From Elusimicrobiota bacterium (GTDB lineage Bacteria; Elusimicrobiota; Elusimicrobia; UBA1565; UBA9628): a stretch of 64,000 nt of DNA. The stretch spans positions 132,770 through 196,769 of the forward strand of contig JACRDT010000015.1 of assembly GCA_016212795.1 (NCBI GenBank), given 5' to 3'. Positions 2,369-30,724 of this stretch are shown one piece after another. Position 1 is the stretch's first letter, and each line of letters begins with the position of its first letter. The notes below the pieces were generated by a model that was not told the origin of the DNA, searched no databases, and worked only from the letters and a program-made list of their open reading frames with translations. A program made the translations under genes and the position numbers.

Positions 2369-3721
2369 ATGGACCTCGACCGCCCGATCCCGCTGGCCTC
2401 CCGCCTGGTCAGGAAAGCCTGGGGCAGCGAGGCCTGGCTCAACGCCGCCCACCCCGGGGGGATGGCCGCCATCAGGGGCGGGCCCGGCGAGGCCGGAGGA
2501 CCGGCGACTCTCGCGGAGTTGGTGCGGCGCCACCCGCAGGTGCTGGGGCCGTGGTCCCGCGCGCTGTTCGGCGACAGGGCGCCGGTCTTCGCCAAGCTCA
2601 TCACGACCGACTTCCCTCCCCTGGCCCACATCGGCTTCCGCCGGCGAGTCGCCCCCGGGGCCTTCCTGCGGCGGCTCTTCATGGAGCACGCCTTGATGCG
2701 CAGCCTGTTCGGGATGCTGGCCGTGAGGGACGCCGCCCGGTTCGCCGGCTTCCAGCGCGCCTACCACGACTGGGCCGCGCTCCAATCCATCGGCGGCTGG
2801 CGGCAGGACATCACCGAAGACCTCGAGCGCGCCCTGCGCCGGTTCCTGAAGCCGGGGCAGGAGGCGTCGCTCGCCTCCCTGCTCAGGTCCGTCCGGCAGA
2901 ACAGGGCGCTCATCGCGGCGGACCTCAACGAGGTCGACCTGCGCGAGCAGGCCGGCCGCCTCATCCTCCTCAGGGGCGGCGTCATCCACTCCCTGTTCGG
3001 GCTCTCGCACCAGGTCCACCCGAGGGACCACGCCCAAGCCGCGCTCCAGGAGTTGATCACCGAGATCCGGGCCCGGGCGTCCCGCGGGGCCCCCGGCGCG
3101 CTGCTGGAGAGCGCGGCCCGCCGGGCGCACCGGTGGAGGCCCGAGGACCCCGCCCCCAAGAGCGAGGCGTGGCTGCCCCTCGACGAGCGCGGCGGCCTGA
3201 CCCTGGCGGAGGTCCAACAGGCGGCCGACACGACCCACAGCCTCTGCGACTTCTTCACCCCCTTCGTCTGGAAGGGCCGGCTGGCCTTCCGGAAGGGCGA
3301 CCCAACAACGGGCCTGAACAACGACGACCTCTCGTCCTTCGCGGCCGGAGTCGAGTTCTCCCCGCACCGGCCCGCCGACTACCTTTGCCAGCCGGCGACG
3401 CAGCGATGCCGGGGAGGCCGGCTGACGCGGCTGCTCGACGCTCCCGGGAAGTGGCCGTTCTTCAGCATCTACCGCCTGGACCTCGATGGGACGAGCCGGG
3501 CGGAGGCGGTCTGGCGGGCGGACAGGCCGAAGGCGGCCTTCCGGCACATCGTGGCCCTCGGAGGCTCCGTCGCCGTGCGGACGCCAGGCCGCCGGGCCGT
3601 GGCCCGGCCGCTCGAGCCCGTCTTCGTCCCGGCGACCCTGTCCACGGGCTACGAGCTGGCCTCGCGGGGCGAAGCGAGCGTCCTCATCATCGCCGTCCCG
3701 GGCCCGCGGCCCGGCCCTTGA
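2369..3721 (+). CDS. divergent class I mannose-6-phosphate isomerase-like (cupin) protein
   Basis: ATG directly follows upstream TAA. RKAWGSEAW, PVFAKLITTDFPPLAHIGF and LAEVQQAADTTHSLCDF resemble the PMI motifs (kpWG, fK.l.a...LSiQVHP, EiQq.SD.TyR.yD), but with substitutions. Confidence 0.45.
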   Translation: MDLDRPIPLASRLVRKAWGSEAWLNAAHPGGMAAIRGGPGEAGGPATLAELVRRHPQVLGPWSRALFGDRAPVFAKLITTDFPPLAHIGFRRRVAPGAFLRRLFMEHALMRSLFGMLAVRDAARFAGFQRAYHDWAALQSIGGWRQDITEDLERALRRFLKPGQEASLASLLRSVRQNRALIAADLNEVDLREQAGRLILLRGGVIHSLFGLSHQVHPRDHAQAALQELITEIRARASRGAPGALLESAARRAHRWRPEDPAPKSEAWLPLDERGGLTLAEVQQAADTTHSLCDFFTPFVWKGRLAFRKGDPTTGLNNDDLSSFAAGVEFSPHRPADYLCQPATQRCRGGRLTRLLDAPGKWPFFSIYRLDLDGTSRAEAVWRADRPKAAFRHIVALGGSVAVRTPGRRAVARPLEPVFVPATLSTGYELASRGEASVLIIAVPGPRPGP

Positions 3722-4923
3722 ACCGTCTCAAGGTCGGCGTCGACCTGGGCGGCAGCTCGGTCCGGGTCGGCTTCGTCCGCGCCCCCCTCCCGGCCGGCCG
3801 CGTCGCCCTGGCCTGCGTTGAGTTCCACCGCATGAGCGTCGGCCGGGGGTCCGACTGCGGCGTCGTCGTCCGGCGAGCGGCGCGCCGCATCCTGGAGAGG
3901 ACGGCGGCGCTCGAGGCGAGAGGCTGGCGCGTGGACAGGCGGCCGGGCATCGGGGCGCCGGGAGCCTACCGCCAAGACGGCAGCGTCCACCCCGGCACGG
4001 TCCCGAACCTGCCGGGGCTCGAGCGCGGGAAGCTCCACAGGCTCTTCCAACGGCATCTGGGCCCTGCGTGGCGCGTCCCCCCGCGCAGCGTGAACAACGA
4101 CGGCGTGGTCCAAGGCCTGCTCATGGCCGACCGATACGCGGCGGGCTCGGGCCTGCGCCGGGGCACGGTCGTCGCGATCATCCCCGGGACGGGCCTCGGC
4201 GCCGGCGTCTACCGGATCCTGGACGGCAAGGCCAGCGCCGTGCCGGGCCCCCAGCAGCTCTTCGACGTGGTCGTGCGGCCCGCGGAGCCGGGCGAGTGCG
4301 CCGTCCTGGCCGGGAGCGCCGGGCCGGTCGGGGCCAAGGCGCGGGGCGGCGAGCCCCTCATCGCCGAAGGCCTCCTCACGGGGATGTCGCTGCGCCTGCG
4401 CGCCAGCCGCCTCCTCGGGCGACCCGTGAGGGGAGAGACCCTCTCCCGCCTGGCGCTGGCCGGCCGCGCCGGGGGACCCCATACGGCCTTCGGCCCCCAC
4501 CCCCGGCACGGCCGGAATCGGAACCCCGCCGGCCGCGCCGGGGGACCCCATACGGCCTTCGGCCCCCACCCCCGGCACGGCCGGAATCGGAACCCCGCCG
4601 GTCGCGGCCCGGGAGCCGCGGCGGCGGCGCGGCTCTTCGAGCAGGTCGGGCGCGACCTCGGGCGCTTCATCGCGCTCGTCCACCGAGGCCGCCTGGAAAA
4701 GCGGGCCGTACCGTTCGCGCCGGCGACGAAGGGCGCCGCGGTCTTCCTCCTCGGCGGGCGCTGGATGCTCGAGGGCGCGGGGCTGGCCATCTCCCTGCCG
4801 GCGGCGCGCCGCGAGCTGCGCTCCCAAGGCCTGGCCGCCATCCGGCTGGTCACCCTGGCCGAGATCCCGGGCTTGGCCGGGGCCTCCGAGGTCATGGGCG
4901 TCCTCGGGGCATCCCTCCTATAG
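3718..4923 (+). CDS. ROK-family sugar kinase carrying an in-frame 2x69-bp repeat insertion
   Basis: Motifs LKVGVDLGGS, GAPGAY, NNDG, PGTGLGAG. No ATG near the N-terminus; TTG 3718 overlaps the upstream TGA (cTTGAa). The start is inferred. Confidence 0.7.
   Translation: MNRLKVGVDLGGSSVRVGFVRAPLPAGRVALACVEFHRMSVGRGSDCGVVVRRAARRILERTAALEARGWRVDRRPGIGAPGAYRQDGSVHPGTVPNLPGLERGKLHRLFQRHLGPAWRVPPRSVNNDGVVQGLLMADRYAAGSGLRRGTVVAIIPGTGLGAGVYRILDGKASAVPGPQQLFDVVVRPAEPGECAVLAGSAGPVGAKARGGEPLIAEGLLTGMSLRLRASRLLGRPVRGETLSRLALAGRAGGPHTAFGPHPRHGRNRNPAGRAGGPHTAFGPHPRHGRNRNPAGRGPGAAAAARLFEQVGRDLGRFIALVHRGRLEKRAVPFAPATKGAAVFLLGGRWMLEGAGLAISLPAARRELRSQGLAAIRLVTLAEIPGLAGASEVMGVLGASLL
4462..4599 (+). repeat. GC-rich hairpin element, two identical tandem 69-bp units (4462..4530, 4531..4599); 50-bp cores at 4465..4514 and 4534..4583
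   Basis: Units are identical base for base on manual comparison. Core is CGCGCCGGGGGACCCC...CTTCG...CCCCCGGCACGGCCG, with outer stem GCCGGGGG/CCCCCGGC and inner GGCC-TTC-GGCC. Confidence 0.9.
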
Positions 4924-6041: not shown

Positions 6042-7475
6042 GTGAGATTCTATTACTTCGACGGCCAGACGATCCGGGACCCGCTGGAGGTCTCGGAGCT
6101 CGTCCAACAGGCCGGCTTCGGCCCGGAGAGCCTCGTCTGCCCCGTCGGCTCGCAGAACACCGGCGACTGGAAAGCCGCGGTCAACTACGAGGCCCTCAGG
6201 CGCGCCCTCCTCGACGCCCCGCCCAAGGCGTCCGGCCCGGAAGCCCGCTGCCCCCTCTGCGGCCACGACAACCCCGGGGACGCCGTCTTCTGCAATCACT
6301 GCGGAGCGAGGTTGCAGGGCGGCCCGGACATCCCCCTGACAGAGCCCTGGATGCCGCCTCCGCCCGAGGCTCCTCCCGCGGCCCGCCCCGAAGGCCGCGG
6401 CCACGGCGGCGGCATGGGCCGCATCGGCGACGCCATGCCCGACCTCCCCGCTCCCGCGGCTGCCGGCGCCCTACCCGCGAGCGCCGCGGACGCTCGGCCG
6501 GACCAAGCCGACCTCGCCCGATCCAAGAAGCGCCGCGTGTGGCTCTCAGCCCTCGTCGTCGGCTGCCTGGTCCTGGCCGCGCTCGCCGCCGTCCACCTGA
6601 AGCGCAAGAAGCCCTCCCGCCGGCCGGCCGCACGGCGCGCCGCGGCGAAAAGCCTCGTGGCTCCCGCGCCGGGGGACCCCCTGCGGCCTTCAGCCGCCGC
6701 CCCCGGCACGGCCGGAGTCGGAATCTCGCCGGCCGCGGCGACGGCGGCCGGCCTGCCCGCAAGCCAAGCCGAGCCCGCGACCCGGCCCCTGGGGCTGCCG
6801 CCCCAGGCCGCGCCCCTTCCGCCGCCGTCCAGGCGCGCCAAACCCAGGATCAAGCCCAAGCCGGCCGCGACCGACCCCGGCGAAGCCAGCCAGCCTTCCC
6901 CGCGCCCCCGGCCCAAGTTCGGCCGGAAGGCCTCGGCCGCGCCCCGGCCCGCCAACACCTTACCTGAGGGCGGCCGGGACGCTCGGCCTCCGGCCTCGGC
7001 CGCGCCCCCATCCGAGGATCCGCAGGAACAGAAGGCGTTGGAGCTTCCCGGCATCCCGAAGAAGGTCAAGCGCGCTCCCGCGGCGGAGCCGGGCGCGTCC
7101 TCAGTCTCCCCCGACGCCGATCGGATCCTGATGGAGAGCGCCAAAGACCAGTTCACCTACTGCCAGCAGCTCCTCAAGGGCAGGTCCTTCGAGACGGCCT
7201 TCAGGAACTGCCTGTGCCCTGCGAGGCGCGACGGCCCCCACTTCAAAGGCAAGCTGAAGAGATTCGTCAAGGAAGCGGAGCGGGGGCCGGAGGTCGGGAG
7301 CGCTTTCCAGGTCCTGTCCACCCAGGTCCAGGAGCAGTCCGTCATCATCACGGCGCGATGGTCCCCGACCGCCAAGGAGCCCGTCGAACGCGCGGAGAAA
7401 TGGTCTTTCGAGGAGGGCCGCTGGTGCCAGGCGGGGCAGTTCTTCTTCGCGCCGGTCGACGAGCCCGGCTCGTGA
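6042..7475 (+). CDS. GYF_2-like domain + zinc-ribbon + Pro-rich linker + single TM + C-terminal domain protein
   Basis: GTG immediately after upstream TGA. N-terminus FYYFDGQTIRDPLEVSELVQQAGF...DWKAAV. CPLCGHDNPGDAVFCNHCGARL zinc ribbon. TM VWLSALVVGCLVLAALAAV. Contains repeat copy B. Confidence 0.6.
   Translation: MRFYYFDGQTIRDPLEVSELVQQAGFGPESLVCPVGSQNTGDWKAAVNYEALRRALLDAPPKASGPEARCPLCGHDNPGDAVFCNHCGARLQGGPDIPLTEPWMPPPPEAPPAARPEGRGHGGGMGRIGDAMPDLPAPAAAGALPASAADARPDQADLARSKKRRVWLSALVVGCLVLAALAAVHLKRKKPSRRPAARRAAAKSLVAPAPGDPLRPSAAAPGTAGVGISPAAATAAGLPASQAEPATRPLGLPPQAAPLPPPSRRAKPRIKPKPAATDPGEASQPSPRPRPKFGRKASAAPRPANTLPEGGRDARPPASAAPPSEDPQEQKALELPGIPKKVKRAPAAEPGASSVSPDADRILMESAKDQFTYCQQLLKGRSFETAFRNCLCPARRDGPHFKGKLKRFVKEAERGPEVGSAFQVLSTQVQEQSVIITARWSPTAKEPVERAEKWSFEEGRWCQAGQFFFAPVDEPGS
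6665..6738 (+). repeat. GC-rich hairpin element copy B (core 6665..6714)
   Basis: CGCGCCGGGGGACCCCCTGCGGCCTTCAGCCGCCGCCCCCGGCACGGCCGGAGTCGGAATCTCGCCGGCCGCG aligns with the 4462 units, including the 3' tail. Confidence 0.85.
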
Positions 7476-7526: not shown

Positions 7527-9914
7527 ATGGAAGACGCCGGCGCAACAGGCCCGGACTGGCGCGCGCTGGACCGGATCGCGGATTACTTCGCCACCTCCCA
7601 GTACGACCTGGCCGACATCTACAACCACATCCTCTTCGAGAGCGGGGGCTCCCTCTGGACCGCCGAGCAGGTGCGCTCGGAGTGGGCGGCCGCGGCGGAG
7701 GGCGAAGGGACCCCGCCCAACGTCAACCTCTACCCCTACATCCCCTTCTGCCGCCGGCGCTGCGGCTTCTGCGGGGACCCGATCGTGATCGTCCGCGACG
7801 GCGCCGAACTCGAGGCCTACCTGGCCAGGCTCATCGCTGAGCTGGAGTTCATGTCCCCCGCGTTCCAGCGGCTGCCCGTGACAGCCGCCTGGCTCGGCGG
7901 CGGCACCCCCACCCTGCTGGACGCCGCCCAGCTCGAGCGCCTGCTCTCCACGGTGCGCTCCCGGTTCCTCTTCCCCGAAGGCGCCGAGATGACCCTCGAG
8001 TGCCACCCCGCGAGCCTCGCCGAGGACAAGCTCAAGACGGCCAGGCTGCACGGCGTCAGCCGCATCAGCCTGGGGGTCCAGACCCTGGACCCGGCGACCC
8101 TGCGCTCCATCAACCGGGCCGACCAGTCCGAGGCGGAGGTCCTGCGCCACATCCGGCAAGCGCGCGCCCTGGGCTTCCCGCACGGGATCAACGTCGACAT
8201 GATCATGGGCCTGCCTGGCGAGAGCCCGGAGGCGTGCCTGCGCACGCTGCGGGTCCTCGCCGCCGAAGGCCCCGACGAGATCTCCGTCTTCACCATCACG
8301 CCCAGCGGCGCGAACTACGTGGGCAAGTTCTACGAAGGAGACGGCGCGGGCTTCGAGCGCCACGGCGCCCTGTACGCCGGCCTCAAGGAGCGGCTCTGCC
8401 AGGAGGCCGAAACGGCCGGCTACGCGCTGATGACCTCGGTGCCGGGCCGCGAATGGCACTTCATGCGCCGGGGCGGCGCCGCCGCGCGGCGCCATCCCGA
8501 GGCCGACGTCTTCGACTCCAACCTGTGCAACCGCCGCATCTTCCTGTTCGGGGTCGGGTCCCGGATGACCTCCATGGTGGGCGACCGGTTCGCCTACGGG
8601 GACATCACGTTCCCCGGGGACCCCTTCGACCCGTCGGCGCCCATGCACAAGGGCACCCGCCTGACGCCGCGGCTGAGGATGCTCCAGTTCCTCTTCCACC
8701 GCCTCCGGACGGACGGCGCCGTCGACGGCGCCGAGTTCCGCGCGCAGTTCCAAGAGGGCCTCCTGGACGCCTTCCCGGAGGTCGTGCAAGCCCTGGCGGA
8801 CCGCGGCCGGGCGAGCCTCGAGGGCGACAGGCTCGCGCTCTCCCGGCGGGACGCGCGCGAGACTTTCCTGTCCGGCATCGCCTTCCTGGACCAGGCGACG
8901 GTCTCGGACGTGCTCCGCTCGAAGAGCATCGCCATCCCTTCCCTGGCGTCCGCCCGCCCTCGGCCGATCGACAAGCCCCTGCCCTCCCCGGGACCCGAGC
9001 CGGAGGAACCCTCCGTGCCGGTGGGCCTGACCGCCGACGGCGTCCTGCTGCCGGGGGCCAACGGCTTCGAGCGGGTCTCCGACGAGGCGGCGCTCGAGCG
9101 CCTCGCCGGGGCCGGCCAGCCCTCCCGGCCGGGCGTGCTCTTCTGCCTCGAGACCCTCCCGGCGGCGCGGTTCCTGGAGTGGGGCCGGCGCCTGCGCGCG
9201 GCCGGCGCGTCGGGCTGGGCGGCGCACCTGGACGGCGTCCTCGACGACGGCGAGGAGGCCGCCGAGGTCTTCGACGAGCTGCGCCTCACGGTGCTCTCGC
9301 TGGACCCGGACCGGCAGGACGCCCTCGACAGGCAGCCGCAGAGCTTCCGCAGGAAGCTCCGGCTGCTCGGGCGCCTGCAGTCGCTGAAGGTCGAGGCGCC
9401 CTCCTTCCGGCTGGCCGTGGACGTCCCCCTCCTGCGGGCCAACTACCGCGACATGCTCGCCATGGCCGTCTCCCTCAAAGGCCTCGGGGCCGACGAGGTC
9501 GCCATCCATTGCCCGGACTTCCGCCTCGGCCAGGCCGCCGGGGAGCCGGACGCCGCGCCCACCTTCAGGGAAGCGATGCCCTTCCTCCTGAGGCTGCTCC
9601 TCAAGAACGCCGCCGGCCCGAAGACGACCCTGCGGCTGTGCGGCTTCGCCCCCTGCTGCTTCCGGCTCCTGCGCAACTCGGTCTCGGACAAGCTCATCGA
9701 GCATCTCGCCGGCAAGCACCTCTGCGCCTCGGCCGCGAGCCTGCCGGCCCGCCTCGCCCTCAAGAGCTCGGCCTTCGACGGGGCGCCCTGGCCCCCGGGC
9801 CGCATGAAGATCCCGGCGTGCTCGCCCTGCCGCTACGCGTCGACCTGCCAGGGCTTGTGGCGCAACTACGCGCTCCTGCACGGCACGCAGGAGATGTGCG
9901 CCATCACCGCCTGA
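7527..9914 (+). CDS. HemN-like radical SAM enzyme fused to a second, Cys-cluster-poor barrel with SPASM/twitch-like Cys-rich C-terminus
   Basis: LYPYIPFCRRRCGFCG (CxxxCxxC) and LGGGTPTLL as in the HemN/HemZ family. C-terminus: CGFAPCC...HLC...IPACSPCRYASTCQG. Confidence 0.7.
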   Translation: MEDAGATGPDWRALDRIADYFATSQYDLADIYNHILFESGGSLWTAEQVRSEWAAAAEGEGTPPNVNLYPYIPFCRRRCGFCGDPIVIVRDGAELEAYLARLIAELEFMSPAFQRLPVTAAWLGGGTPTLLDAAQLERLLSTVRSRFLFPEGAEMTLECHPASLAEDKLKTARLHGVSRISLGVQTLDPATLRSINRADQSEAEVLRHIRQARALGFPHGINVDMIMGLPGESPEACLRTLRVLAAEGPDEISVFTITPSGANYVGKFYEGDGAGFERHGALYAGLKERLCQEAETAGYALMTSVPGREWHFMRRGGAAARRHPEADVFDSNLCNRRIFLFGVGSRMTSMVGDRFAYGDITFPGDPFDPSAPMHKGTRLTPRLRMLQFLFHRLRTDGAVDGAEFRAQFQEGLLDAFPEVVQALADRGRASLEGDRLALSRRDARETFLSGIAFLDQATVSDVLRSKSIAIPSLASARPRPIDKPLPSPGPEPEEPSVPVGLTADGVLLPGANGFERVSDEAALERLAGAGQPSRPGVLFCLETLPAARFLEWGRRLRAAGASGWAAHLDGVLDDGEEAAEVFDELRLTVLSLDPDRQDALDRQPQSFRRKLRLLGRLQSLKVEAPSFRLAVDVPLLRANYRDMLAMAVSLKGLGADEVAIHCPDFRLGQAAGEPDAAPTFREAMPFLLRLLLKNAAGPKTTLRLCGFAPCCFRLLRNSVSDKLIEHLAGKHLCASAASLPARLALKSSAFDGAPWPPGRMKIPACSPCRYASTCQGLWRNYALLHGTQEMCAITA

Positions 9915-9983: not shown

Positions 9984-11309
9984 TCACTTGACGTCGCGGA
10001 CCGGACGCAGCCCGAGGTAGCGGATGTGCTCGGCGAGGCCGCTGCCCGCCCGGAACATGACGTCGAGCTCCACGGCGCGGCTCTCCGCGGCGCCGCCCCG
10101 GATGACCCGCACGGTCCCGGGAGGGTCCTCCCAGGCGCGGCTGTCCGCCGGGGCGCCCCTGTACGAGTCGTGGTACCAATCCTGGACCCATTCCCAGGCG
10201 TTGCCCGCCATGTCGCAGAGCCCCTGCTCCGTGTGGCCCTTGGGCTTCGAGCACACGGGCATGGTGGCCCCCGTCCCGCAGCCGTCGCCGGCCTGGCCGG
10301 CGTCGTCCTCCTCGCCGCCGCCCTCCTCGCCGGGGCCGTCGCCGTGGCGCATCACCGCGTAGGCGCACGTCGGCGCGGCGTTCCCCCACGGGAACCGGCG
10401 CTCCGCCCCGCCGCCGCGCGCCGCGTACTCCCACTCCGTCTCGCTGGGCAGCCTGCCGCCGGCCCAGGCCGCGAACGCGCGCGCCTGGTCCCAGGTCAGG
10501 CAGACCGCCGGGTGGCTGTCGTCCTCCTCGGCGGACCATTGGCAGAACGCGGCCGAGCAGACGCCGGCGTCCATGCAGGCGCCGTATTGGGCCCTCGTGA
10601 CCTCGTGCTTGGCGATCTCGAACGTCTTGACCTGGGCGAAATGGTGGGCTCCCATCCTGAAGGAACCGCCGGGGATGGCCACCCAGGTGATTTTCGTCGG
10701 CGACTTCCTCTCCTTCTTGGCCGCCGGCGCGGCCTGGGTCTTGGGCCCCGGCGCGGGGGCGGGCATGAGGGTCACCCCCGCCGCGAGCCGCGGTTGTTGC
10801 CGGGCGGGCTGGGGCGCGGCCTGGCTCTTCGGCGCGGGGACCGGAGGCCGGGCGTCATGCGCGGCGGACGGGGGCGCGGCCTGGACCTTGGGCGAGGCCC
10901 CGCGCTCCTCCGGGAGGGCCCGGGCAGCCGGGAAGAGGGGCACGGGAGCGGCCGCCCTCCGGCCCGGCGGCAAGGACAGGACCGGCGCGTCCGAGCCCGC
11001 CGCCAGGTTGGTCCCGATGGCCCGGTGCCGGGTCCGGAGGCGCAGCGCCAGGGAGATCACGCCGGCCAAGACGCACAGGAGCGCGAGGCCGGCGATGACG
11101 ATGAGGAGCTGGCGCGTCACCCGCTCGGACGCGATCGCGGCGAAGGAGACGCGGGGGAAGGCCGGGGCCGAGTCCTCCACGGGCTCCGGGGCGACGAGCC
11201 TCATCGCGCACACGCCGCAGAGCCTGGCGGCGGCGCGGTTGACGTAGCCGCAGACGGGGCAGCCCGCGGGCGGCGGCGGGCGCTTGGGGACGCTCGCGGT
11301 GGCGCTCAC
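9984..11309 (-). CDS. zinc-ribbon / TM / Pro-rich / FGE-sulfatase-domain protein (lacks the FGE catalytic Cys pair)
   Basis: GTG 11309 overlaps the kinase TGA (GTGA). CPVCGYVNRAAARLCGVCAMRL. TM LLIVIAGLALLCVLAGVISLAL. FGE-fold motifs WVAIPGGSFRMG, GGRLPSETEWEYAARGG, CDMAGNAWEWVQDWY, RVIRGG. Confidence 0.75.
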   Translation of the reverse strand: MSATASVPKRPPPPAGCPVCGYVNRAAARLCGVCAMRLVAPEPVEDSAPAFPRVSFAAIASERVTRQLLIVIAGLALLCVLAGVISLALRLRTRHRAIGTNLAAGSDAPVLSLPPGRRAAAPVPLFPAARALPEERGASPKVQAAPPSAAHDARPPVPAPKSQAAPQPARQQPRLAAGVTLMPAPAPGPKTQAAPAAKKERKSPTKITWVAIPGGSFRMGAHHFAQVKTFEIAKHEVTRAQYGACMDAGVCSAAFCQWSAEEDDSHPAVCLTWDQARAFAAWAGGRLPSETEWEYAARGGGAERRFPWGNAAPTCAYAVMRHGDGPGEEGGGEEDDAGQAGDGCGTGATMPVCSKPKGHTEQGLCDMAGNAWEWVQDWYHDSYRGAPADSRAWEDPPGTVRVIRGGAAESRAVELDVMFRAGSGLAEHIRYLGLRPVRDVK

Positions 11310-13054
11310 AGGGAGCCGAGCCTCTGCAGGAACTCCGCCGGAGAGCGGAACCTGTACTTGTGGTTCGGCTCGAGCGCCGTCGCGATCATGTCGTCGACCG
11401 CGGGAGGGAACCCCATGAGCTTGCGGCCGGAAGCGGCGCGCCGGCGCTGCTCCTTCTGAGCCACGAAATCCGGGCCGGGGAACATCATCTCCCCGGTCAG
11501 CATCTCGTAGAGGCAGGCCCCCAGCGAGAACACGTCGGAGGCGGGCACGGCCTCGCCGTGGTGCTGCTCGGGCGCCATGTACGCCCACGCCCGCGAGGGC
11601 CCGGCGCCCGTCAGGCGGACGAGCGCGTCCTTGGCGGCCCGCGCCAGGGCGAAATCCGTCACCTTGACGACGCCGTCCGCCCCCACCATCACGTTCGACG
11701 GGTTGAGCCCGAGATGGAGCACCTTGCCGCCGTGCGCGAACTCCAGGGCCTCGCACACCGGGGCGAGGAGTCGCTTGCAGTCCGCGAGCGGCAGCCTCCA
11801 GCTCTCGGCCAGGACGGCGGCCAGGGGCTTGCCGCCGAAGAACTCGTACACGAGGAAGAGGTCCCCCCCAGCCTCCACGACGTCGCAGAGGCGCACGATG
11901 CCAGGGTGCTCCAGCTGGGCGATGGCCCTGGCCGAGGATTGGAAGCGGTCGGACTCCCGAGGCTCGGACCGGATCTCCCGGCGCAGCCTCTTGACCGCGA
12001 CCTTGCGGTTCGCGTCGCGGTCGAAGCCGTCGATGACCACCCCGATGCTGCCTTCGGCGATGACCCCGCGCAAGTCGTATCGTTTCGCGATGGTCGGCGG
12101 CAGGGAGATGGGGGCGGGGGCCGGCGCCGGGGCGGCGTCCGCCGACGGGGAGCCGGGCGCCGGCGCCGAGACCGCCCGGAGCGCGGCCAGCCTCTCGCCG
12201 GCGTCCCGGTAGGACACCTTGGCGGCCGCGAACTTCCCGTAGACGCTCTCGGCCGTCGCCAGGTCGCCGGCTTTCTCGCAGGCCGCGGCGAACCGGTAGT
12301 GGAGGTCGGGGTCGGTCTTGACCGGCCTCAGGTCGTCGATGCGCCCGTAGAGCGCCTTGGCGCGCTCCATCCGCCCCGCTCCCACGAACAGCTTGAAGAC
12401 CAGGAGGAGGTCCTCCACCTGGCACTCGGCCGCGGGGATGGCGTCCCAGGCGGCGGTGGCCTCGTCGAGCCGCCCGTCCACGACGAACGCGCGGAACGCC
12501 AGCCGGCGGCAGCCCGGGGCCGACGCCTCGCACCGCGCCAGCAGGAGCAGGCACGGCTTCGGCTTGCCCGTGTCCAGCAGCGCGCGCGCCATGGGCAGGA
12601 GGAAGTCCGACCCGAGCCTCATCCAGCCGTCCAGGCAGACCTCGAGCTGGCCGACGCTCTGGGCGAACCGGACCACCTCCTCATGGCCGCGCGGCCCCGC
12701 GCACAACGAGCGCAGGGGCTCCTCCTCGGTCAGGAACCGGATGGGCTCGCCCATCTGCCCGGCGGCCGCGAAGCACTTGAGGATGCCCAGGACCTGGGCG
12801 GGATCGCATTTCCCAGGCCAGGGCAGGAGGGTGTCCTTCTTGCCGGTGCCGGCGTACGCGGCGTGGATCCACTCCGGGGGGATCCGCCGGATGACGTCCG
12901 TCGCCATGAGCCGCTCGAAGGCGACCTGGATCCTGTGCAGGTCGACGGCGAATTCCCCGGACCCGCCCCGGCCGGCCTGCCAGTCCAGCGGCCGGCCGCA
13001 CTGGTCGCAATAGACGAGCCCGGGCACCTGCGCCAAGCACTCGCGGCAGACCAT
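11306..13054 (-). CDS. zinc-ribbon + helical-repeat + Ser/Thr-kinase-like domain protein, predicted pseudokinase
   Basis: N-terminus MVCRECLAQVPGLVYCDQCGRPL. Kinase fold: GSIGVV, VAVKRL, YMAPEQ. The catalytic loop reads HLGLNPSN (canonical HRDLKPxN) and DFG reads DFA. Confidence 0.75.
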   Translation of the reverse strand: MVCRECLAQVPGLVYCDQCGRPLDWQAGRGGSGEFAVDLHRIQVAFERLMATDVIRRIPPEWIHAAYAGTGKKDTLLPWPGKCDPAQVLGILKCFAAAGQMGEPIRFLTEEEPLRSLCAGPRGHEEVVRFAQSVGQLEVCLDGWMRLGSDFLLPMARALLDTGKPKPCLLLLARCEASAPGCRRLAFRAFVVDGRLDEATAAWDAIPAAECQVEDLLLVFKLFVGAGRMERAKALYGRIDDLRPVKTDPDLHYRFAAACEKAGDLATAESVYGKFAAAKVSYRDAGERLAALRAVSAPAPGSPSADAAPAPAPAPISLPPTIAKRYDLRGVIAEGSIGVVIDGFDRDANRKVAVKRLRREIRSEPRESDRFQSSARAIAQLEHPGIVRLCDVVEAGGDLFLVYEFFGGKPLAAVLAESWRLPLADCKRLLAPVCEALEFAHGGKVLHLGLNPSNVMVGADGVVKVTDFALARAAKDALVRLTGAGPSRAWAYMAPEQHHGEAVPASDVFSLGACLYEMLTGEMMFPGPDFVAQKEQRRRAASGRKLMGFPPAVDDMIATALEPNHKYRFRSPAEFLQRLGSL

Positions 13055-13063
13055 GGCCCCCCA

Positions 13064-13072
13064 ATGATAGCA
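13064..13072 (-). promoter_or_regulatory. extended -10 TGCTATCAT, 9 nt upstream of ATG 13054
   Basis: Minus strand reads TGCTATCAT-TGGGGGGCC-ATG. Confidence 0.45.
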
Positions 13073-13095
13073 GGTTTTCGCCGCCCACGGCTCGC

Positions 13096-13108
13096 GGGGG
13101 GGGGGGGG
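13096..13108 (-). repeat. 13-nt homopolymer (G13 on +, C13 on the coding strand of flanking genes)
   Basis: Counted from the sequence. It lies between the ptb-like stop (13113) and the promoter/start of the pseudokinase gene. Confidence 0.9.
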
Positions 13109-13112
13109 CGGG

Positions 13113-14042
13113 TCAGGCCGGCAGGGTCCGGCCCTTCATGAAGGACGCCAGCGCGATGGAGAGCATCTTGGTCCTCGGCTCGTCGGCCCTCGACGGCAGG
13201 ATGACCGGCAGCCTGGCGCCGGCCACGATCGCCGCCGAGGCGAAGCCGTCGGCGAAGAACGAGATGGCCTTGTAGACCGCGTTGGCCGCGTCGAGGTCCG
13301 GGAGGACGGCGATGTCCGCGTCTCCGGGAACGAGCCCGCCCTTCACGCCCTTCTCGTCGGCGAGCCTGCGGGAGAAGGCGATGTAGAGGTCGTAGGGCCC
13401 CTCGACCACGGCGTTCCCGATGCGGCCGTCCCGGCTCATGGCCGCCAGCGCCGCGGCGTCCTCGGTGCTGGGGATGCCGGGGTTGACCTTCTCGATGGGG
13501 CAGATCACCGCGACCTTGGGGGTCGCCACGCCAAGCCTGCGCATCACGCCGACGGCGTTCCTGACGATGAGCCGCTTCTCCTCGAGGCTCGGGGCGATCA
13601 TGATGGCGGCGTCGCTCAGGGCGAAGAGCTTGTGGTAGCGGGCCGTCTGGAACAGGACGACATGGCTCAGGGCCGCCCCCTCGTCCACCAGCCCGGACTC
13701 CCGCCTCATGATCGACTTGAGGAAGGACTTGGTGTCCACCATGCCTTTCACCAGGAAATCCCCCCCGCCGTCCTTGATGAGGCCGGCCGCCAGGTCGCAC
13801 ATCCTGGAGACCTCCGTCTCCTGGAAGAGCTGGAACCGGCCGAGGCCCAGGCCCACCCGGGCGGCCAGCGCCTCGACCTCCTTCTTGTCTCCGACGAGCG
13901 CGCCCCCCGACAGCAGGCCGGCCTCGTCGCTCATCTTGAGGGCCTCGAGGACCTCCGCGCTGGCCGCGCCCGGCACCACGACGCGGTTGGGCTTGCCCCT
14001 CACCAGCTTCACCAGCTCCGAGAAGTCCTTGAACTCCATCAT
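13113..14042 (-). CDS. phosphate butyryl/acetyltransferase family protein (PTA_PTB)
   Basis: MMEFKDFSELVKLVRGKPNRVVVPGA...FLVKGMVDT...SDAAIMIAP...GPYDLYIAFS...AANAVYKA pattern. Start moved to ATG 14042, behind a GAGGGGGG SD. Confidence 0.75.
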   Translation of the reverse strand: MMEFKDFSELVKLVRGKPNRVVVPGAASAEVLEALKMSDEAGLLSGGALVGDKKEVEALAARVGLGLGRFQLFQETEVSRMCDLAAGLIKDGGGDFLVKGMVDTKSFLKSIMRRESGLVDEGAALSHVVLFQTARYHKLFALSDAAIMIAPSLEEKRLIVRNAVGVMRRLGVATPKVAVICPIEKVNPGIPSTEDAAALAAMSRDGRIGNAVVEGPYDLYIAFSRRLADEKGVKGGLVPGDADIAVLPDLDAANAVYKAISFFADGFASAAIVAGARLPVILPSRADEPRTKMLSIALASFMKGRTLPA

Positions 14043-16214: not shown

Positions 16215-17153
16215 ATGACCGTCGAGCTGTTCGCCAAAGGCTGCCTGGACGCGTGCTGGTACGGGGCCTACCATTACGTCGAGCCCTGGGTGGGCTGCGG
16301 CCACGGCTGCCACTACTGCTACGCGCGCTTTCGCGGCGCGGTCAGGAATTCGCTCGCCGCCCGGGGCGCGGCCTACGAGCGCCCCGTCCCCCTGCTCGAG
16401 CGCAAGGCCCTCCTCGACAGCGTCCGCCGCGGCGTCAAGGAGCACCAGGTCGAGAGCGTGAAGCTCTGCCGCTTCACCGACATCATGAACCCCGCCTTCG
16501 TGAAGGACGGGCTCGCCCTCGGGATCCTCGAGGCCCTGCTGGAAGGAGGGGCCCGGCGCATGATCATCACGACCAAGGGCCTGCCCGACGCCAGGATCAT
16601 GGACCTCATCAGCCGCCACCCGGACCGCTTCTCCTACAACGCGGCCGCCCGTCCCGCGCGGGGCCTGCCCCTGGAGCCCGGCCTCCCGCCGCTGGCCAAA
16701 CGGCTGGACGCGGCCGCGCGGCTCAAGGCCGCGGGGGTCCTGGTGACCGTGCACCTCGACCCCATGGCCCCCGGGTTCGACGACGACCCCGAGTCCCTGC
16801 GGCCCTTCCTGGAGGACCTGCGCGCCCGGGGCCTCCAGCGCGCCATGTTCTCCTACCTCCTGATCAACCCGGCGATCCGCGAGCGCCTCTCGAAGAAGCT
16901 CCCCCCCGCCGTCTTCGAGCGCATCCTCGGCAGCTACGACCTCCGCCGGCCCGAACGCATGCTCCCGGGCCAGGAGGAGACGGACTACTTCACCATCAAG
17001 CCCGAGATCCGCCGCGCCTCGGTGGAGCGCGTCGTCGCCCTGCTCGACGAGCTGGGGTTCCAATACGTGCTGTGCTCCCTCAAGAGCGTGGCCGGCGACG
17101 ACCAGGGCAAGCTGGGCAAGGCCAAGCTCTGCGACGGCTCGTTCTATGCCTAA
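16215..17153 (+). CDS. radical SAM protein, SplB/DNA-photolyase-like family (COG1533-like)
   Basis: VGCGHGCHYCYA CxxxCxxC motif near the N-terminus. Size and layout match spore-photoproduct-lyase-like radical SAM proteins. Confidence 0.65.
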   Translation: MTVELFAKGCLDACWYGAYHYVEPWVGCGHGCHYCYARFRGAVRNSLAARGAAYERPVPLLERKALLDSVRRGVKEHQVESVKLCRFTDIMNPAFVKDGLALGILEALLEGGARRMIITTKGLPDARIMDLISRHPDRFSYNAAARPARGLPLEPGLPPLAKRLDAAARLKAAGVLVTVHLDPMAPGFDDDPESLRPFLEDLRARGLQRAMFSYLLINPAIRERLSKKLPPAVFERILGSYDLRRPERMLPGQEETDYFTIKPEIRRASVERVVALLDELGFQYVLCSLKSVAGDDQGKLGKAKLCDGSFYA

Positions 17154-23770: not shown

Positions 23771-23978
23771 GCCGCAAGGTCTGGATTCCTCGACCGGGAA
23801 GACCGCAAGCTTCCCTCATGGCGTGCGCGACGTTCCCGAGGCCCGCCCACCGAAGGAGGTCCGCTACGCCCTGACGAGCCATCTCGTGGGATTATCCTAC
23901 TAGAACTGAGCGGCGCACATTCAAATTACTGTTTCAGTATCAATATTAATCTGGATATTTGCACAATGCATATTCAAC

Positions 23979-24007
23979 TTGCATAATGTACGATTCTTTG
24001 CTACACT
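23979..24007 (+). promoter_or_regulatory. TTGCAT-N17-TACACT sigma70-like promoter for the DUF4143 ATPase gene
   Basis: Read directly in the AT-rich stretch 23880..24030. Confidence 0.45.
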
Positions 24008-24029
24008 TCTTGTCATAGGCGATCTGAAA

Positions 24030-25217
24030 ATGGTGGACAGGACAGCGGGACCCATCATCAAGAGGCTGGCCCAGACGCATCCGGTCGTGACAGTCACCGG
24101 ACCGCGCCAGAGCGGCAAGACCACTCTTTGCAGGATGGTCTTTCCGGAGAAGCCGTATGTCAACCTGGAGAATCCGGCGACCAGGTCTTTCGCGCTCGAT
24201 GATCCGGTCGCGTTCCTCAGACAGCACCGTGACGGCGCCATCTTCGATGAGATCCAGCGGGCGCCGGACCTGACTTCCCATATCCAAGCTTCCCTCGAGG
24301 ATGACTCCCGCCCAGGCTTGTTCATCTTGACGGGAAGCAGGCAACTGGAGGTGATGGAAGCGGTGAGCCAAAGCCTCGCCGGCAGGACCGCTCTGGTCAA
24401 ACTGCTCCCGTTCAGTCTCGACGAATTGCGCGGCAGCTATGACATAGGGTCTCTCGACGCGTTGGTCGCGCGCGGATTTTTCCCGAGGATCTACGACCGA
24501 GGCCTGGACCCGGCGCAAGCCTTGGGGGACTATTTCGAGACCTGTGTGGAGCGCGATGTCCGCAGGGTCGTCCAAGTCAAGGACCTGAGCACGTTCGGGC
24601 GGTTCGTCCGGCTCTGCGCCGCGAGAGTCGGGCAGCTTCTCAATCTGAACGGCCTGGCCGATGACGCGGGCGTCTCGCATACCACGGCGCGGTCATGGAT
24701 GAGCGTCTTGGAAGCCATGTATGTCGTCTTCCTCCTCCAGCCCTACCACAAGAACATCGGCAAGCGGCTCATCAAGTCGCCCAAGGTCTATTTCTACGAT
24801 GTCGGCTTGGCCAGCCATCTCCTCGGCATCGAGAACGAGGTCCATGTCGCGGGCCATCCTCTGCGCGGGAGCCTCGTCGAGAACCTTGTCATCATGGAGG
24901 TCTTGAAACACCGCCTTCATCGGGGAGGCGGGGCGGGCTTGAGTTTCTACCGCGACAGCGCGGGCCACGAGGTGGACCTGCTCGTGCCGATCGGGCCCGA
25001 GCCGTTCCCCATCGAGATCAAGGCCGGCGCCACCTTCGGCCCGGATTACCTGAAGGGGCTGGCCGCTTTCTCCAAGGCGCACCGTCAGGCGGCCGTCCGA
25101 GGAGCCGTCGTGTACGCCGGAGACGCGGCGCAGGAACGCCACGGCATCCTCATCCATCCCGTGATGGATGTCCACGCCCTGCTCGATCGCTTGCCCGGGG
25201 CCTACAGCCGCGCGTAG
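24030..25217 (+). CDS. AAA ATPase with DUF4143 domain (AAA_14-type)
   Basis: VTVTGPRQSGKTTL Walker A, IFDEIQ Walker B-like. Start set at MVDRTAGPIIKRL. Visibly lower GC than the surroundings. Confidence 0.75.
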   Translation: MVDRTAGPIIKRLAQTHPVVTVTGPRQSGKTTLCRMVFPEKPYVNLENPATRSFALDDPVAFLRQHRDGAIFDEIQRAPDLTSHIQASLEDDSRPGLFILTGSRQLEVMEAVSQSLAGRTALVKLLPFSLDELRGSYDIGSLDALVARGFFPRIYDRGLDPAQALGDYFETCVERDVRRVVQVKDLSTFGRFVRLCAARVGQLLNLNGLADDAGVSHTTARSWMSVLEAMYVVFLLQPYHKNIGKRLIKSPKVYFYDVGLASHLLGIENEVHVAGHPLRGSLVENLVIMEVLKHRLHRGGGAGLSFYRDSAGHEVDLLVPIGPEPFPIEIKAGATFGPDYLKGLAAFSKAHRQAAVRGAVVYAGDAAQERHGILIHPVMDVHALLDRLPGAYSRA

Positions 25218-25314
25218 AGGTTTTCGCCCTCCACCTTGGCAATGAGCCGTTCGAAGGCCGCGTCACGGCCCGAAAGGGCTTTGCCTTCCCCCCAGGTCCC
25301 GATCCGGTCGCTAA

Positions 25315-25349
25315 ATCAGCCCCGGACGACCGCGGACTCCACCGGCCCG
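25315..25349 (+). repeat. 35-bp direct repeat, copy 1 (left flank of TA cassette)
   Basis: ATCAGCCCCGGACGACCGCGGACTCCACCGGCCCG. 33 of 35 positions are identical to 26049..26083 by manual alignment. Confidence 0.85.
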
Positions 25350-25403
25350 CATCGCCGAATGTTCAACCCTGGTTGTAGGCCTGGGGGATGGGGGCGCGCC
25401 CGG

Positions 25404-25679
25404 CTAAAATGACTTCAGGAAGCGTCTGACATCGTCATGGCTGCCGTAAAGCAGGTACAAAATCGCGCCTTCGCGTTTGAGATACAGGACCCGTTTCTTG
25501 ATGCCCGCCCGGAACTCGAAGAAGTCGCCCCGGAGGTGTTTCATCCCAAGTCCCCTGGGAAACCGGCCGGCTTCCCAGGCTGTCTCGAATTTCGCGACTG
25601 CTTGATAAAGGCGCCTGCCTTCGCCCGGGGATAGCTCGGAGATCGTCGCGTGGAAAGACCCCGAGTAGCCGAACCGCAC
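25404..25679 (-). CDS. RelE/ParE-superfamily type II toxin
   Basis: GTG 25679 lies 4 nt after the antitoxin stop. GMKHLRGDFFEFRAGIKKRVLYLKREGAILYLLYGSHDDVRRFL fits the RelE/ParE C-terminal pattern. Confidence 0.6.
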   Translation of the reverse strand: MRFGYSGSFHATISELSPGEGRRLYQAVAKFETAWEAGRFPRGLGMKHLRGDFFEFRAGIKKRVLYLKREGAILYLLYGSHDDVRRFLKSF

Positions 25680-25683
25680 GGCG

Positions 25684-25968
25684 TCAGCGCGGCTTGAGCC
25701 GCGACTTGAGATGCCGCAAGGAAGCTTGGGAGTCGAGCCCGGCCGCAGCCGGGGGCTTGGCCGCGAGCCCGCGAATCTTCTCCCACTCCTCATCGGTAAA
25801 TGGGTCGCTGGTCGGGACCGGCTCAATGCGGGTCAACGCCACGCGCCGGCCGTCTACTATGAACCCCACCAAGTCGCGAGCCTCGCGCAGGCTCAGGGCT
25901 TTGCGCACGGCCTTGGGCAGGGTCACCTGCGCCTTGTTGCCCAAATGGCTGAAATAGACATGCTGCAT
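25684..25968 (-). CDS. AbrB/MazE/SpoVT-type antitoxin
   Basis: N-terminus LGNKAQVTLPKAVRKALSLREARDLVGFIVDGRRVALTRIE is a swapped-hairpin (SpoVT-AbrB)-like motif. It sits upstream of the toxin. Confidence 0.65.
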   Translation of the reverse strand: MQHVYFSHLGNKAQVTLPKAVRKALSLREARDLVGFIVDGRRVALTRIEPVPTSDPFTDEEWEKIRGLAAKPPAAAGLDSQASLRHLKSRLKPR

Positions 25969-25974
25969 GGGAAT

Positions 25975-26003
25975 ATCCTATTTTACGGAAATCTCAGATT
26001 TCC
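25975..26003 (-). promoter_or_regulatory. TA promoter/operator: TAGGAT-N6-ATG plus perfect inverted repeat GGAAATC-N3-GATTTCC
   Basis: Minus strand reads GGAAATCTGAGATTTCCGTAAAATAGGATATTCCCATG. The palindrome at 25987..26003 is a likely antitoxin operator. Confidence 0.45.
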
Positions 26004-29300: not shown

Positions 29301-29465
29301 GGCCCAGCCGAGTCCTTCTCCGATGGGCCCTCCAAGTCGTCCCTCTGATCGAGGAGCACCTGTTTGAGGTCTTCGTAGCTCACCAGAGATATGATACTCT
29401 GATTGCATAAGAAAGTCAGGTATCATGCAGTTGACTGCACAAGAATAGTCATATCCCAGGAGAAG

Positions 29466-29503
29466 TTATCCACAAAACTTTCCCGGGAAAGTCCGGTGGA
29501 TAA
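29466..29503. promoter_or_regulatory. 38-bp nested palindrome TTATCCAC-AAAA-CTTTCCCGGGAAAG-TCCG-GTGGATAA in an AT-rich intergenic region
   Basis: Read directly. The outer arms equal the DnaA-box core TTATCCAC(A). On the minus transcript the inner hairpin is followed by UUUU (terminator-like). Confidence 0.4.
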
Positions 29504-30717: not shown

Positions 30718-30724
30718 GGCTTTC

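Follow-up and report, generated by a model that had tools for sequence, protein, structure and literature searches.

Palindromes inserted in frame in coding sequence ('coding palindromes') were at first regarded as a peculiarity of Rickettsia, and documented cases in free-living bacteria are few. The Rickettsia palindromic elements (RPE-1 to RPE-10) are short palindromes inserted in frame in many genes (Ogata et al. 2000 Science, 2002 Genome Res, via PMC10969869, PMC3733652). In-frame intragenic palindromic repeats are also found outside Rickettsia, e.g. in Opitutus terrae (PMC3733652), which makes the behaviour less exceptional. Two further groups are relevant, the intragenic GTAG- and CGTC-tagged REPs of Opitutus terrae and Thioalkalivibrio (Di Nocera et al. 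2013, PMC3733652) and the bacterial MITEs that make in-frame fusions, such as QMITE1 of Coxiella (PMC5896051) and the intragenic ERIC and Anabaena MITEs (PMC10969869).

The window, as we call the whole 64-kb stretch of DNA that was analysed, carries a repeat that we consider likely to represent a family found in groundwater Elusimicrobia, whose short, non-autonomous palindromes are GC-rich and sit in frame in unrelated genes. A first-pass annotation had reported two identical 69-bp units in a ROK-like gene, and this was confirmed: unit 1 (4462-4530, + strand; nhmmer E 5.7e-17) and unit 2 (4531-4599, + strand) agree base for base, the exact repeat extends 3 nt more leftward and 2 nt more rightward, and TRF returns a period of 69 with 2.1 copies and a score of 289. 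A 60-nt core pattern gives two matches in the window versus zero expected from shuffles. The element is about 70-80 nt long and about 80% GC, the genome being 70% GC, and has the consensus [GCCGGCCGCG] CCGGGGGACCCC AWACGCCC-TTC-GGGCGTYR CCCCCGGCACGGCCGG AAGAGGAACATY GCCGGCCG. Folding reproduces both features that were originally proposed, an outer stem of 8 bp, GCCGGGGG/CCCCCGGC, and an inner hairpin that closes on TTC. The predicted single-strand fold consists of two hairpins. The first (4468-4507 in unit 1) has the invariant 8-bp stem around a mini-hairpin of 6 bp with a 3-nt loop; the second (4509-4535, extending into the shared terminal motif) has the stem CGGCCGG/CCGGCCG, which is retained in seven of the eight copies. 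The folds are consistent among copies (z = -4.8 for the consensus-like L003 copy). The covariation check that had been suggested for them gave compensatory changes at two inner-stem pairs and an invariant outer stem in the eight copies; it was underpowered, and covariation support is weak because the 8-bp stem never varies and only the two inner pairs change on both sides.

No Rfam family matched at gathering thresholds, a cutoff of E <= 1 brought up just two chance returns near E 0.5-0.6, and no published description of the element was found in the literature searched, in agreement with the initial view that this is not a described family. The resemblance to Rickettsia palindromic elements that had been put forward stands as far as behaviour is concerned. 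Both are short palindromic repeats without coding capacity of their own, both are inserted in frame in many unrelated, apparently functional genes (here four in the window and four in other MAGs), both occupy orthologous sites in related species and no transposase is known for either. The resemblance does not extend to the encoded peptide: each RPE family has one conserved peptide with a consistent frame and orientation, whereas three frames, distributed over both strands, are in use for the Elusimicrobia element. RPEs are, moreover, about 100-150 bp long and AT-rich and reside in obligate intracellular alpha-proteobacteria, in contrast to an element of 70-80 nt and about 80% GC in free-living groundwater Elusimicrobia. 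Judged by composition, length and host phylum, which set it apart from the published RPE descriptions, sequence homology is implausible, and the evidence supports reading the comparison as an analogy of behaviour rather than as membership.

The likeness to the REPs lies in GC-rich stem-loops (REP stems are 8-13 bp) that occur within known genes singly, as dimers or in groups, in the addition of 20-30 amino acids that are argued to form flexible linkers or loops, and, for the CGTC REPs, in the lack of a dedicated transposase. The Elusimicrobia hairpin differs in having neither a GTAG nor a CGTC tag at either end: it is flanked by GCG.../...CACGG in all copies, and CGTC is confined to the inner stem of two of the eight. 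It is also longer and composite, with a nested inner hairpin and a second hairpin, its ROK dimer is a direct tandem repeat and not head-to-head, and its eight known sites are all intragenic, whereas REPs are mostly intergenic. With the MITEs it shares small size, non-autonomy, folding into hairpins, the extension or interruption of ORFs in frame and short direct repeats flanking the copies. Terminal inverted repeats of about 15-30 bp are, however, absent; the ends have only the 6-nt self-complementary GCCGGC, and the long inverted repeats of the element are its internal hairpins. No parent IS is known, and the flanking direct repeat is the same at different sites, unlike an ordinary target-site duplication. 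We regard the Elusimicrobia repeat as a putative new family of a rare kind of gene-resident selfish DNA, of which Rickettsia and a small number of other bacteria have provided earlier examples.

With an nhmmer profile the window yields exactly five copies, at E 1e-15 to 1e-17; below E = 4 there is no other match. The three copies beyond the ROK doublet were where they had been reported, at about 6665, 34993 and 61456, in + orientation and inside ORFs; their CCGGGGGACCCC starts are at 6669, 34997 and 61460, all on the + strand, and they match the ROK copy or one another at 56-67 of 76 nt. Every window copy lies inside a gene backed by GC3 periodicity plus Pfam, homology or fold evidence.

Host gene 1 (3718-4923, + strand; P0001) encodes a divergent sugar kinase of 401 aa with a ROK-like (ASKHA) fold, in which the insert occupies residues 249-294. 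Its original designation as a ROK kinase holds by fold and by name but not by profile: the AF2 model (pLDDT 84.7, pTM 0.83, with pLDDT < 50 only at residues 253-294) has as its best Foldseek match the ROK hexokinase 3vov (E 4e-16, TM 0.70-0.74 target-normalised), followed by many ROK kinases and repressors, and the exact NCBI protein bears the name 'ROK family protein', while no Pfam family matches at E <= 0.01, hence not the ROK profile (PF00480), and there is no sequence match in PDB. The model supports a predicted ROK/ASKHA sugar-kinase fold that is intact around the insert. Each 69-nt unit translates in the host frame as AGRAGGPHTAFGPHPRHGRNRNP, which is thus present twice, and the reading frame, as judged by codon-position GC, is unchanged before and after the insert.

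Copy 3 (6659-6737, + strand; nhmmer E 1.5e-16) is read in the sense frame as APGDPLRPSAAAPGTAGVGISPAA and lies at residues 208-233 of host gene 2 (6042-7475, + strand; GC3 frame, Pfam Zn_Ribbon_1), within the Pro/Ala-rich linker of a 477-aa protein that also has a zinc ribbon and a TM helix. Copy 4 (34987-35064, + strand; nhmmer E 1.4e-15), with GCCGGCCGC at 34987 and at 35056, is read antisense as GLVPLAAVPGAAPEGRLGSPG by host gene 3 (34381-35121, - strand; P0015, HY927_07710, GC3 frame), a secreted protein of 246 aa with 1099 homologues at E <= 0.001, where it occupies residues 20-45 between the signal peptide and the conserved domain. Copy 5 (61449-61530, + strand; nhmmer E 1.9e-17), in which the 3' arm of hairpin 2 is degenerate, has the antisense reading LPAVPGVAPEGRLGSPGAA and lies in the N-terminal region, residues 124-151, of host gene 4 (57052-61899, - strand; GC3 frame), which encodes 1615 aa with an AAA_5 ATPase and a VWA domain (Pfam) and has an uncertain start codon.

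Comparison of filled and empty sites shows the segment to be a real insertion and not a conserved feature of the host proteins. In the comparison with related ROK proteins that had been proposed, ten homologues have a 10-aa loop without the insert, where the window protein has 10 + 46 aa. For host gene 3, P0136 from a related MAG (JACQWX01) is a syntenic orthologue with the TetR neighbour retained; it is 62-63% identical and shows a clean 63-nt gap (21 codons) exactly over the element. This empty site has GCGGCAGGC once, and the window has GCGGCCGGC at either side of the element. A third site, in RmlD, is seen in all states: L004 and L005 carry the element intact, in L047 and L048 it has decayed or lost part of its length, and P0020 and ten more distant RmlD proteins lack it. 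The family offers a clean filled-versus-empty site, one orthologous site in intact, decayed and empty states, and three reading frames.

The ROK doublet is bounded by 10-nt direct repeats, GCCGGCCGCG at 4459 (4459-4468, + strand) and again at 4528, and a third, GCCGGTCGCG, at 4597 (4597-4606, + strand). Since the homologues have a loop of 10 aa and the window protein 10 + 46 aa, GCCGGTCGCG is probably the original target sequence of the ROK loop. Both units carry private substitutions that are absent from every other copy, which argues that one unit was duplicated in place rather than a second one inserted from another locus. The doublet may be a recent product of the locus itself, generated when the 10-nt repeats on either side of a unit slipped or exchanged unequally, and the outcome would be 46 disordered residues in a surface loop of an otherwise intact kinase. 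That the window derives from a metagenome-assembled genome and that the units are 100% identical would also suit an artefact, in which a single true copy, or an array of different length, was expanded or collapsed by the assembler. We regard this as decidedly unlikely: to be assembled at all, the doublet requires the unit-to-unit junction in reads, its 138 nt are 46 codons that keep the frame, and the element itself is found in four independent assemblies; with k-mers > 69 a two-unit array would contain no repeated k-mer and should assemble unambiguously.

The presence of multiple copies in unrelated genes, first noticed in the window, extends to three other groundwater Elusimicrobia MAGs, which contain four further copies. 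The known sample amounts to nine copies (eight distinct) at about seven to eight sites, seven of which are counted as independent, in four genomes, and all known copies, in the window and in the other MAGs, are intragenic. Copy number is patchy, with four sites in the 64 kb of the window, one or two exact-pattern copies in each of three related species-representative genomes and none in about 75 kb of other related DNA; this fits a selfish element with lineage-specific bursts. Several candidates were discarded. L001, one of the copies, was not accepted as an orthologue of the window gene at 6042-7475, the common features being only a zinc ribbon and a Pro-rich architecture. L002, a genome-scan match from the Alphaproteobacteria, is not homologous, as only the pattern anchors match; a metagenome scan with GGGGGACCCCN{15,25}CCCCCGGCAC gave 40 matches, none a family member (nhmmer E <= 0.01), and the single match of a viral scan was an unrelated contig already among these. 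In plasmids and phages blastn found nothing relevant.

The claim of in-frame tolerance proved correct in a broader sense, for the element is read in three frames and in both orientations relative to the host genes. Four independent sites use one sense frame, three use one antisense frame, and the ROK copy has a third frame, rich in Arg/His; copies other than that of the ROK gene lie in Pro/Ala linkers or directly after signal peptides. These preferences of frame, like those of orientation and target, rest on very small numbers, i.e. nine copies and seven independent sites. The recurrence of one sense and one antisense frame, both of which encode Pro/Gly/Ala-rich linker-like peptides, would agree with a recombining protein module, a flexible peptide such as APGDPxRPSGxxPGTAG being exchanged for its function at the protein level. 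Yet the three frames on two strands yield unrelated peptides, synonymous positions are conserved and the ROK copy uses the Arg/His-rich frame. A six-frame peptide profile searched in 5.8 billion proteins likewise had the window's own P0015 (31 bits) as its sole match, although so short and simple a motif is ill suited to this route. On frame usage as predicted from sequence, the protein module appears largely refuted, and we consider it very improbable. The occurrence in unrelated hosts, in three frames and in both orientations, indicates instead a DNA element. Yeast mitochondrial GC clusters and 'byp' elements are likewise GC-rich mobile palindromic mini-elements that can sit in protein-coding genes; they are organellar, and the byps are skipped by the ribosome. 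Nothing suggests bypassing for the Elusimicrobia element, because every copy is in frame and stop-free in the frame used.

Three copies, those of the ROK gene and of 34993 and L001, have the near-palindromic terminal motif GCCGGCCGC at each end, a direct repeat of 9-10 nt flanks three to four copies, and one near-copy of it is found at the empty site. New copies arise at sites with a GCCGGCCGC-like motif, which is then found on both sides of the insert. All that the two ends of the element have in common is GCCGGC(CG), a direct and at the same time an inverted repeat. As the flanking repeat is identical at different sites, it may belong to the element itself or reflect a preferred target; since the left-hand GCCGGCCGC is degenerate in four of the eight copies, target-site duplication, terminal repeat and target preference are indistinguishable. 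The constant GCCGGCCGC at insertion sites is a concrete handle on the spread of transposase-less palindromic repeats.

For the palindromic repeat family we propose that spread may depend either on a trans-acting enzyme recognising the GCCGGCCGC motif or on microhomology-templated copying at the self-complementary GCCGGC ends. Pfam scans of about 50 predicted window genes detected no transposase, Y1 or RAYT domain, and no tRNA or tmRNA from which the element might derive was found in the window. The GCCGGCCGC motif would read as Ala/Gly/Pro/Arg codons and, at 70% genomic GC, would be frequent in coding sequence, so that insertions would land in genes; a survival filter would follow, selection retaining only stop-free, multiple-of-three copies in loops, linkers or just after a signal peptide, and aged copies would decay or lose part by deletion. 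The family would be a compact natural example of selfish DNA giving rise to additional disordered loops and linkers in the proteins of a phylum that has been little studied. In the annotation of MAGs its practical effect is that proteins are lengthened and profile matches broken, and that inserts may be misread as protein-level motifs or as errors of assembly.

The core is conserved to a degree not expected of a purely neutral passenger. In the eight distinct copies, which come from four genomes, about 44 positions (CCGGGGGACCCC ... CCCCCGGCACGGCCG) never vary, and at the RmlD site L004 and L005 are identical at 66 of 72 nt of the element (92%) versus 70.5% for the host gene, with third codon positions identical at 20 of 24 versus 56% in the rest of the gene. 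The core hairpin might be a functional nucleic-acid signal under purifying selection, beneficial to the host rather than selfish and tolerated in coding DNA, for example a hairpin or cruciform in the DNA to which a host protein binds, or a site associated with recombination or replication. The inner hairpin, which on the minus strand reads C-GAA-G, presumably the motif of unusually stable DNA mini-hairpins, would accord with such a role, as would one orientation at all four window sites under a uniformly negative GC skew. We nevertheless hold a functional signal, including the examples given, to be unlikely. Two other genomes have a decayed element at the RmlD site and the remaining ones have none there; copies per sampled genome region range from one to at least five; and L004 and L005 are close, with 88-99% identity in the neighbouring rpsB and tsf, which means that 92% is not extreme. 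The same orientation of the window copies had been emphasised at first; it was observed again, but with four independent sites (two-sided p = 0.125) it carries no weight by itself, and at other loci the relation to local GC skew is the opposite one, the skews being tiny.

A further possibility, quite unlikely in our estimate, dispenses with a transposase altogether: the hairpin would copy itself into GCCGGCCGC-like sites by replication-linked, microhomology-templated insertion, with the invariant 44-nt core under DNA-level selection within genes as well. If true, this would be a self-homing, coding-compatible repeat that builds disordered protein loops in free-living bacteria.

As to base composition, GC skew is uniformly negative over the window, where all copies are on the + strand; at the other loci, of 4-8 kb each, the copies are oriented oppositely with respect to the local, very small skew.

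The window has a GC content of 70%, at which ORFs mean little, and the coding status of each site was hence judged by codon-position GC (GC1, GC2 and GC3 in each frame). At every site one frame with a GC3 of 0.84-1.0 and GC1 above GC2 runs on through both flanks of the element. Four genes of the window serve as hosts: 3718-4923 (+), whose product is identical to an NCBI 'ROK family protein' of an Elusimicrobia MAG (228,475-nt contig); 6042-7475 (+), whose product combines a zinc ribbon and a TM helix with a Pro-rich linker; 34381-35121 (-), encoding the 246-aa secreted protein HY927_07710; and 57052-61899 (-), encoding a 1615-aa AAA_5 and VWA protein. The claim of the first-pass annotation that all copies lie inside ORFs, two hosts being on the + and two on the - strand, holds on the basis of codon-position GC that is continuous across the element.

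No base differs between units 4462-4530 and 4531-4599, and the exact repeat reaches 3 nt further on the left side and 2 nt further on the right. Tandem Repeats Finder assigned to this doublet a period of 69, 2.1 copies and a score of 289, by far the top array of the window, which bears out the two identical tandem 69-nt units proposed in that annotation. A 60-nt core pattern matched twice in the window (0 expected from shuffles). The claimed recurrence of the core at 6665, 34993 and 61456 was recovered by repeat finding and alignment, with the CCGGGGGACCCC motif starting at 6669, 34997 and 61460, all on the + strand, and by a profile HMM built from the copies, which retrieved five copies from the 64 kb (E 1e-15 to 1e-17) and no further one below an E of about 4. 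The family in the window thus consists of five copies at four sites. Private substitutions common to both ROK units and absent from every other copy imply that the doublet arose locally, which would most simply have occurred by slippage or unequal exchange between 10-nt direct repeats; the lack of any difference between the units implies that the duplication is recent. It is improbable that the exact doublet is an assembly artefact: the unit-unit junction has to be present in the reads, and the element itself was found in four independent assemblies.

Presence/absence evidence was obtained from three hosts, the ROK-like kinase, the 246-aa protein and RmlD. The kinase (3718-4923) has no match in Pfam or in a PDB sequence search; its AlphaFold model (pLDDT 84.7, pTM 0.83) best matches the ROK hexokinase 3vov (E 4e-16), followed by dozens of ROK kinases and repressors, and by its predicted fold it is a divergent ROK-like sugar kinase. 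The loop between LSRxAL and ARxxF comprises 10 residues in ten ROK-like homologues (38-48% identity) and 56 residues, 10 plus exactly 46, in the window kinase. The comparison of orthologues advised in the first-pass annotation thus found the 46-aa insert (residues 249-294) absent from the ten homologues compared; in the model, pLDDT drops below 50 only at residues 253-294. The closest relative of the 246-aa protein, P0136 from the MAG JACQWX01 (62-63% identical), adjoins the same divergent TetR gene. The alignment covers the ribosome-binding site, start codon and signal peptide, is interrupted by a clean 63-nt (21-codon) gap in P0136 that falls exactly over the element, and then resumes. The empty site reads ...GCGCC GGCGGCAGGCGGC..., while the filled window site has GCGGCCGGC on either side of the insert. 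Near the C-terminus of RmlD, an intact copy occupies one common site in two other Elusimicrobia MAGs (loci L004 and L005), recognisable remnants, mutated and partly deleted, occupy it in L047 (JACRDQ01) and L048 (JACQWX01), and the site is empty in P0020, an RmlD protein without the element, and in ten more distant RmlD proteins. Filled, empty and decayed sites across three hosts amount to gain, retention and decay, as expected of an inserted repeat rather than a protein segment under conservation. The palindromic element is a real insertion with multiple copies, which unrelated genes tolerate in frame and which decay over time; the proposed tolerance in unrelated proteins is borne out by the empty sites of all three hosts.

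A distant homologue of the kinase (P0010; L051 5001-6089, MAG JANQER01, 41% GC) carries a different insert of ~24 aa in the same loop (homologous to window 4450-4610), in which a small GC-rich hairpin (AGGGGCGG...CCGCCCTA) precedes four AATCAAA heptamers in tandem. The loop seems to take up unrelated insertions repeatedly.

Eight distinct copies align gap-free over about 80 nt, with GCCGGGGGACCCC, CG, CCTTC and CCCCCGGCACGGCCG invariant in all eight. Judged by the copies from other MAGs, the ancestral form was likely GCG CCGGGGGACCCC AWACGCCC TTC GGGCGTYR CCCCCGGCACGGCCGG AAGAGGAACATY GCCGGCCG. Folded as DNA or RNA, the element forms two hairpins: the 8-bp stem GCCGGGGG/CCCCCGGC around a 6-bp stem with a 3-nt loop, in accordance with the outer stem and enclosed inner hairpin drawn earlier, and CGGCCGG/CCGGCCG with a 13-nt loop, which is retained in seven of the eight copies. 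About half of the copies allow an alternative extension, in which a left-hand GCCGGCCG pairs with the CGGCCGG of hairpin 2. A z of -4.8 was obtained for the fold of the consensus-like L003 copy. In the covariation analysis suggested earlier, two inner-stem pairs are changed on both sides (in the ROK and 6665 copies, for instance, G-C replaces C-G). The outer stem of hairpin 1 does not vary among the eight copies and so carries no covariation information, and the covariation score was beaten by 13-26 of 500 shuffles, weak support from eight related sequences.

The ROK array is laid out as GCCGGCCGCG-59 nt-GCCGGCCGCG-59 nt-GCCGGTCGCG, and the 34993 and L001 copies are likewise bordered on either side by the same 8-10 nt motif; every copy has it at the right, and in the remaining copies the left-hand one is degenerate. 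Since the motif has the same sequence at different sites and the sole DNA-level empty site contains a one-mismatch copy, GCCGGCCGC would either belong to the element itself, represent a strongly favoured target or supply the microhomology used for insertion. The window contains 26 occurrences of this 9-mer (expectation from dinucleotide-preserving shuffles, 8.5 +/- 2.8), 5 of the 26 being element-associated, so that potential targets are plentiful. The 9-mer is thus enriched genome-wide, possibly through codon usage or earlier decayed copies.

Four independent cases (ROK, 6665, L001 and RmlD) have the element in sense orientation to the host gene, and three (34993, 61456 and L003) have it in antisense. 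The sense frame APGDPxRPSGxxPGTAG is used at four sites, the antisense frame LPAVPGxxPEGRxGSPGA at three and the sense frame RAGGPHTxFGxHPRHGR at the ROK site only; the use of three frames on both strands rules out a recombining protein module. Peptides of the two common frames are Pro/Gly/Ala-rich and nearly uncharged, and the unused frames are Arg-rich or contain a stop codon in some copies, a usage that fits a selection filter on which frames proteins tolerate. The same + orientation, as claimed, was seen at 4/4 sites of the window, which has a uniformly negative GC skew, but with p = 0.125 no conclusion was drawn from it; the short loci of other genomes show the opposite relation between orientation and skew, their skews being negligible.

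Between L004 and L005 the element is identical at 66/72 positions (third positions 20/24) and the rest of RmlD at 70.5% (third positions 56%; P = 1.2e-5 and 0.005), with indels in the immediate flanks of the copy. This excess identity, together with a core that is invariant across four genomes, is not expected of a neutral passenger, and could be due to a constrained hairpin, to gene conversion by other copies or to renewed insertion at a favoured site. Two observations speak against a strong functional role: the adjoining rpsB and tsf are 88-99% identical, which indicates that the two genomes are close, and the same RmlD site has decayed in two other genomes. The identity of L004 to L005 is a mosaic, mostly 88-99% in the housekeeping stretch including rpsB and 60-80% with several indels in the adjacent RmlD; RmlD is either fast-evolving or was exchanged by recombination, which complicates rate arguments on the element.

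The search with the core pattern was extended beyond the window, as the first-pass annotation had recommended. In an exact-pattern scan of 185,579 species-representative genomes, a collection that does not include the window's own genome, the element was found only in three groundwater Elusimicrobia MAGs (two copies in JACQWX01, one each in JACRNU01 and JBAZSR01). A match in an Alphaproteobacteria MAG was rejected as a chance match, and none of 40 matches to a looser pattern in JGI metagenomes is a family member. The element was not found in viral contigs, plasmids or phages, and about 75 kb of further related Elusimicrobia DNA, reached via host-gene homologues, yielded the L048 remnant and no other copy. 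With four sites, the 64-kb window exceeds the 1-2 exact copies per related genome, which suggests a lineage-specific expansion.

Rickettsia palindromic elements (RPEs) are described as in-frame insertions in many unrelated genes, with one conserved peptide encoded by each family (PMC10969869). The present element is likewise found in frame in unrelated genes, but it has no relation to RPEs in composition, length or host phylum and uses several frames; the analogy drawn earlier stands for behaviour, not for membership. Its behaviour also matches the intragenic GTAG/CGTC-tagged REPs of Opitutus terrae, Thioalkalivibrio and others, which add 20-30 residues, often as dimers, and are argued to occupy linkers or loops (PMC3733652), but the eight-copy alignment shows no GTAG or CGTC tag. 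Unlike MITEs, it has no long terminal inverted repeats, and Pfam scans of the window genes revealed no transposase. No Rfam family matches the element, even at E <= 1, and literature searches turned up no description, in line with the earlier remark that the sequence was not recognised as a described family. It is accordingly classed as a new family within an already known kind, member of neither the RPEs nor the GTAG/CGTC REPs: a clean new example, with some unusual features, in an understudied phylum, of a phenomenon known since 2000.

A second repeat of 83 nt, inverted and ~80% identical, is present at 6926-7008 (+) and 40027-40109 (reverse complement). Both copies are intragenic, in the Zn-ribbon/Pro-rich gene carrying the 6665 copy and in gene 39891-41102 (no Pfam match), and fold with a ~10-bp stem CCCGGCC.GYC/GRC.GGCCGGG. 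The pair may represent a second intragenic palindromic repeat family; the loci examined yielded no convincing further copy (best E 0.022, in L052).

A low-GC island at 23900-26000 (0.63-0.65 vs about 0.70) contains an AAA_14 and DUF4143 ATPase gene (23979-25217, +), with a homologue in L052, a MazE/AbrB-like antitoxin gene (25684-25968, -) and, overlapping the latter, a 140-aa ORF without a Pfam match (25404-25826, -); the island probably represents an acquired islet of toxin-antitoxin or defence type. The adjacent paralogues 46933-48543 and 48543-50078 (537 and 512 aa, no Pfam match) share 81-84% identical stretches at 1535-nt spacing, which indicates a tandem gene duplication, and coincide with the most negative GC skew of the window. 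Two FGE-sulfatase-domain genes accompany two Ser/Thr protein kinase genes in the regions 9987-13135 (-) and 26092-30753 (-): 9987-11309 abuts the kinase 11309-13135, and 29620-30753 lies ~700 nt from the TPR-containing kinase 26092-28917, both modules having a common 149-nt stretch of 85% identity (29017 vs 30479). Two B12-binding radical SAM genes on opposite strands (41102-42526, +; 43729-45720, -) are adjoined by a family 2 glycosyltransferase and a methyltransferase gene. Radical SAM genes are also found at 7527-9911 and 16215-17150, so that these enzymes are unusually abundant in the window.
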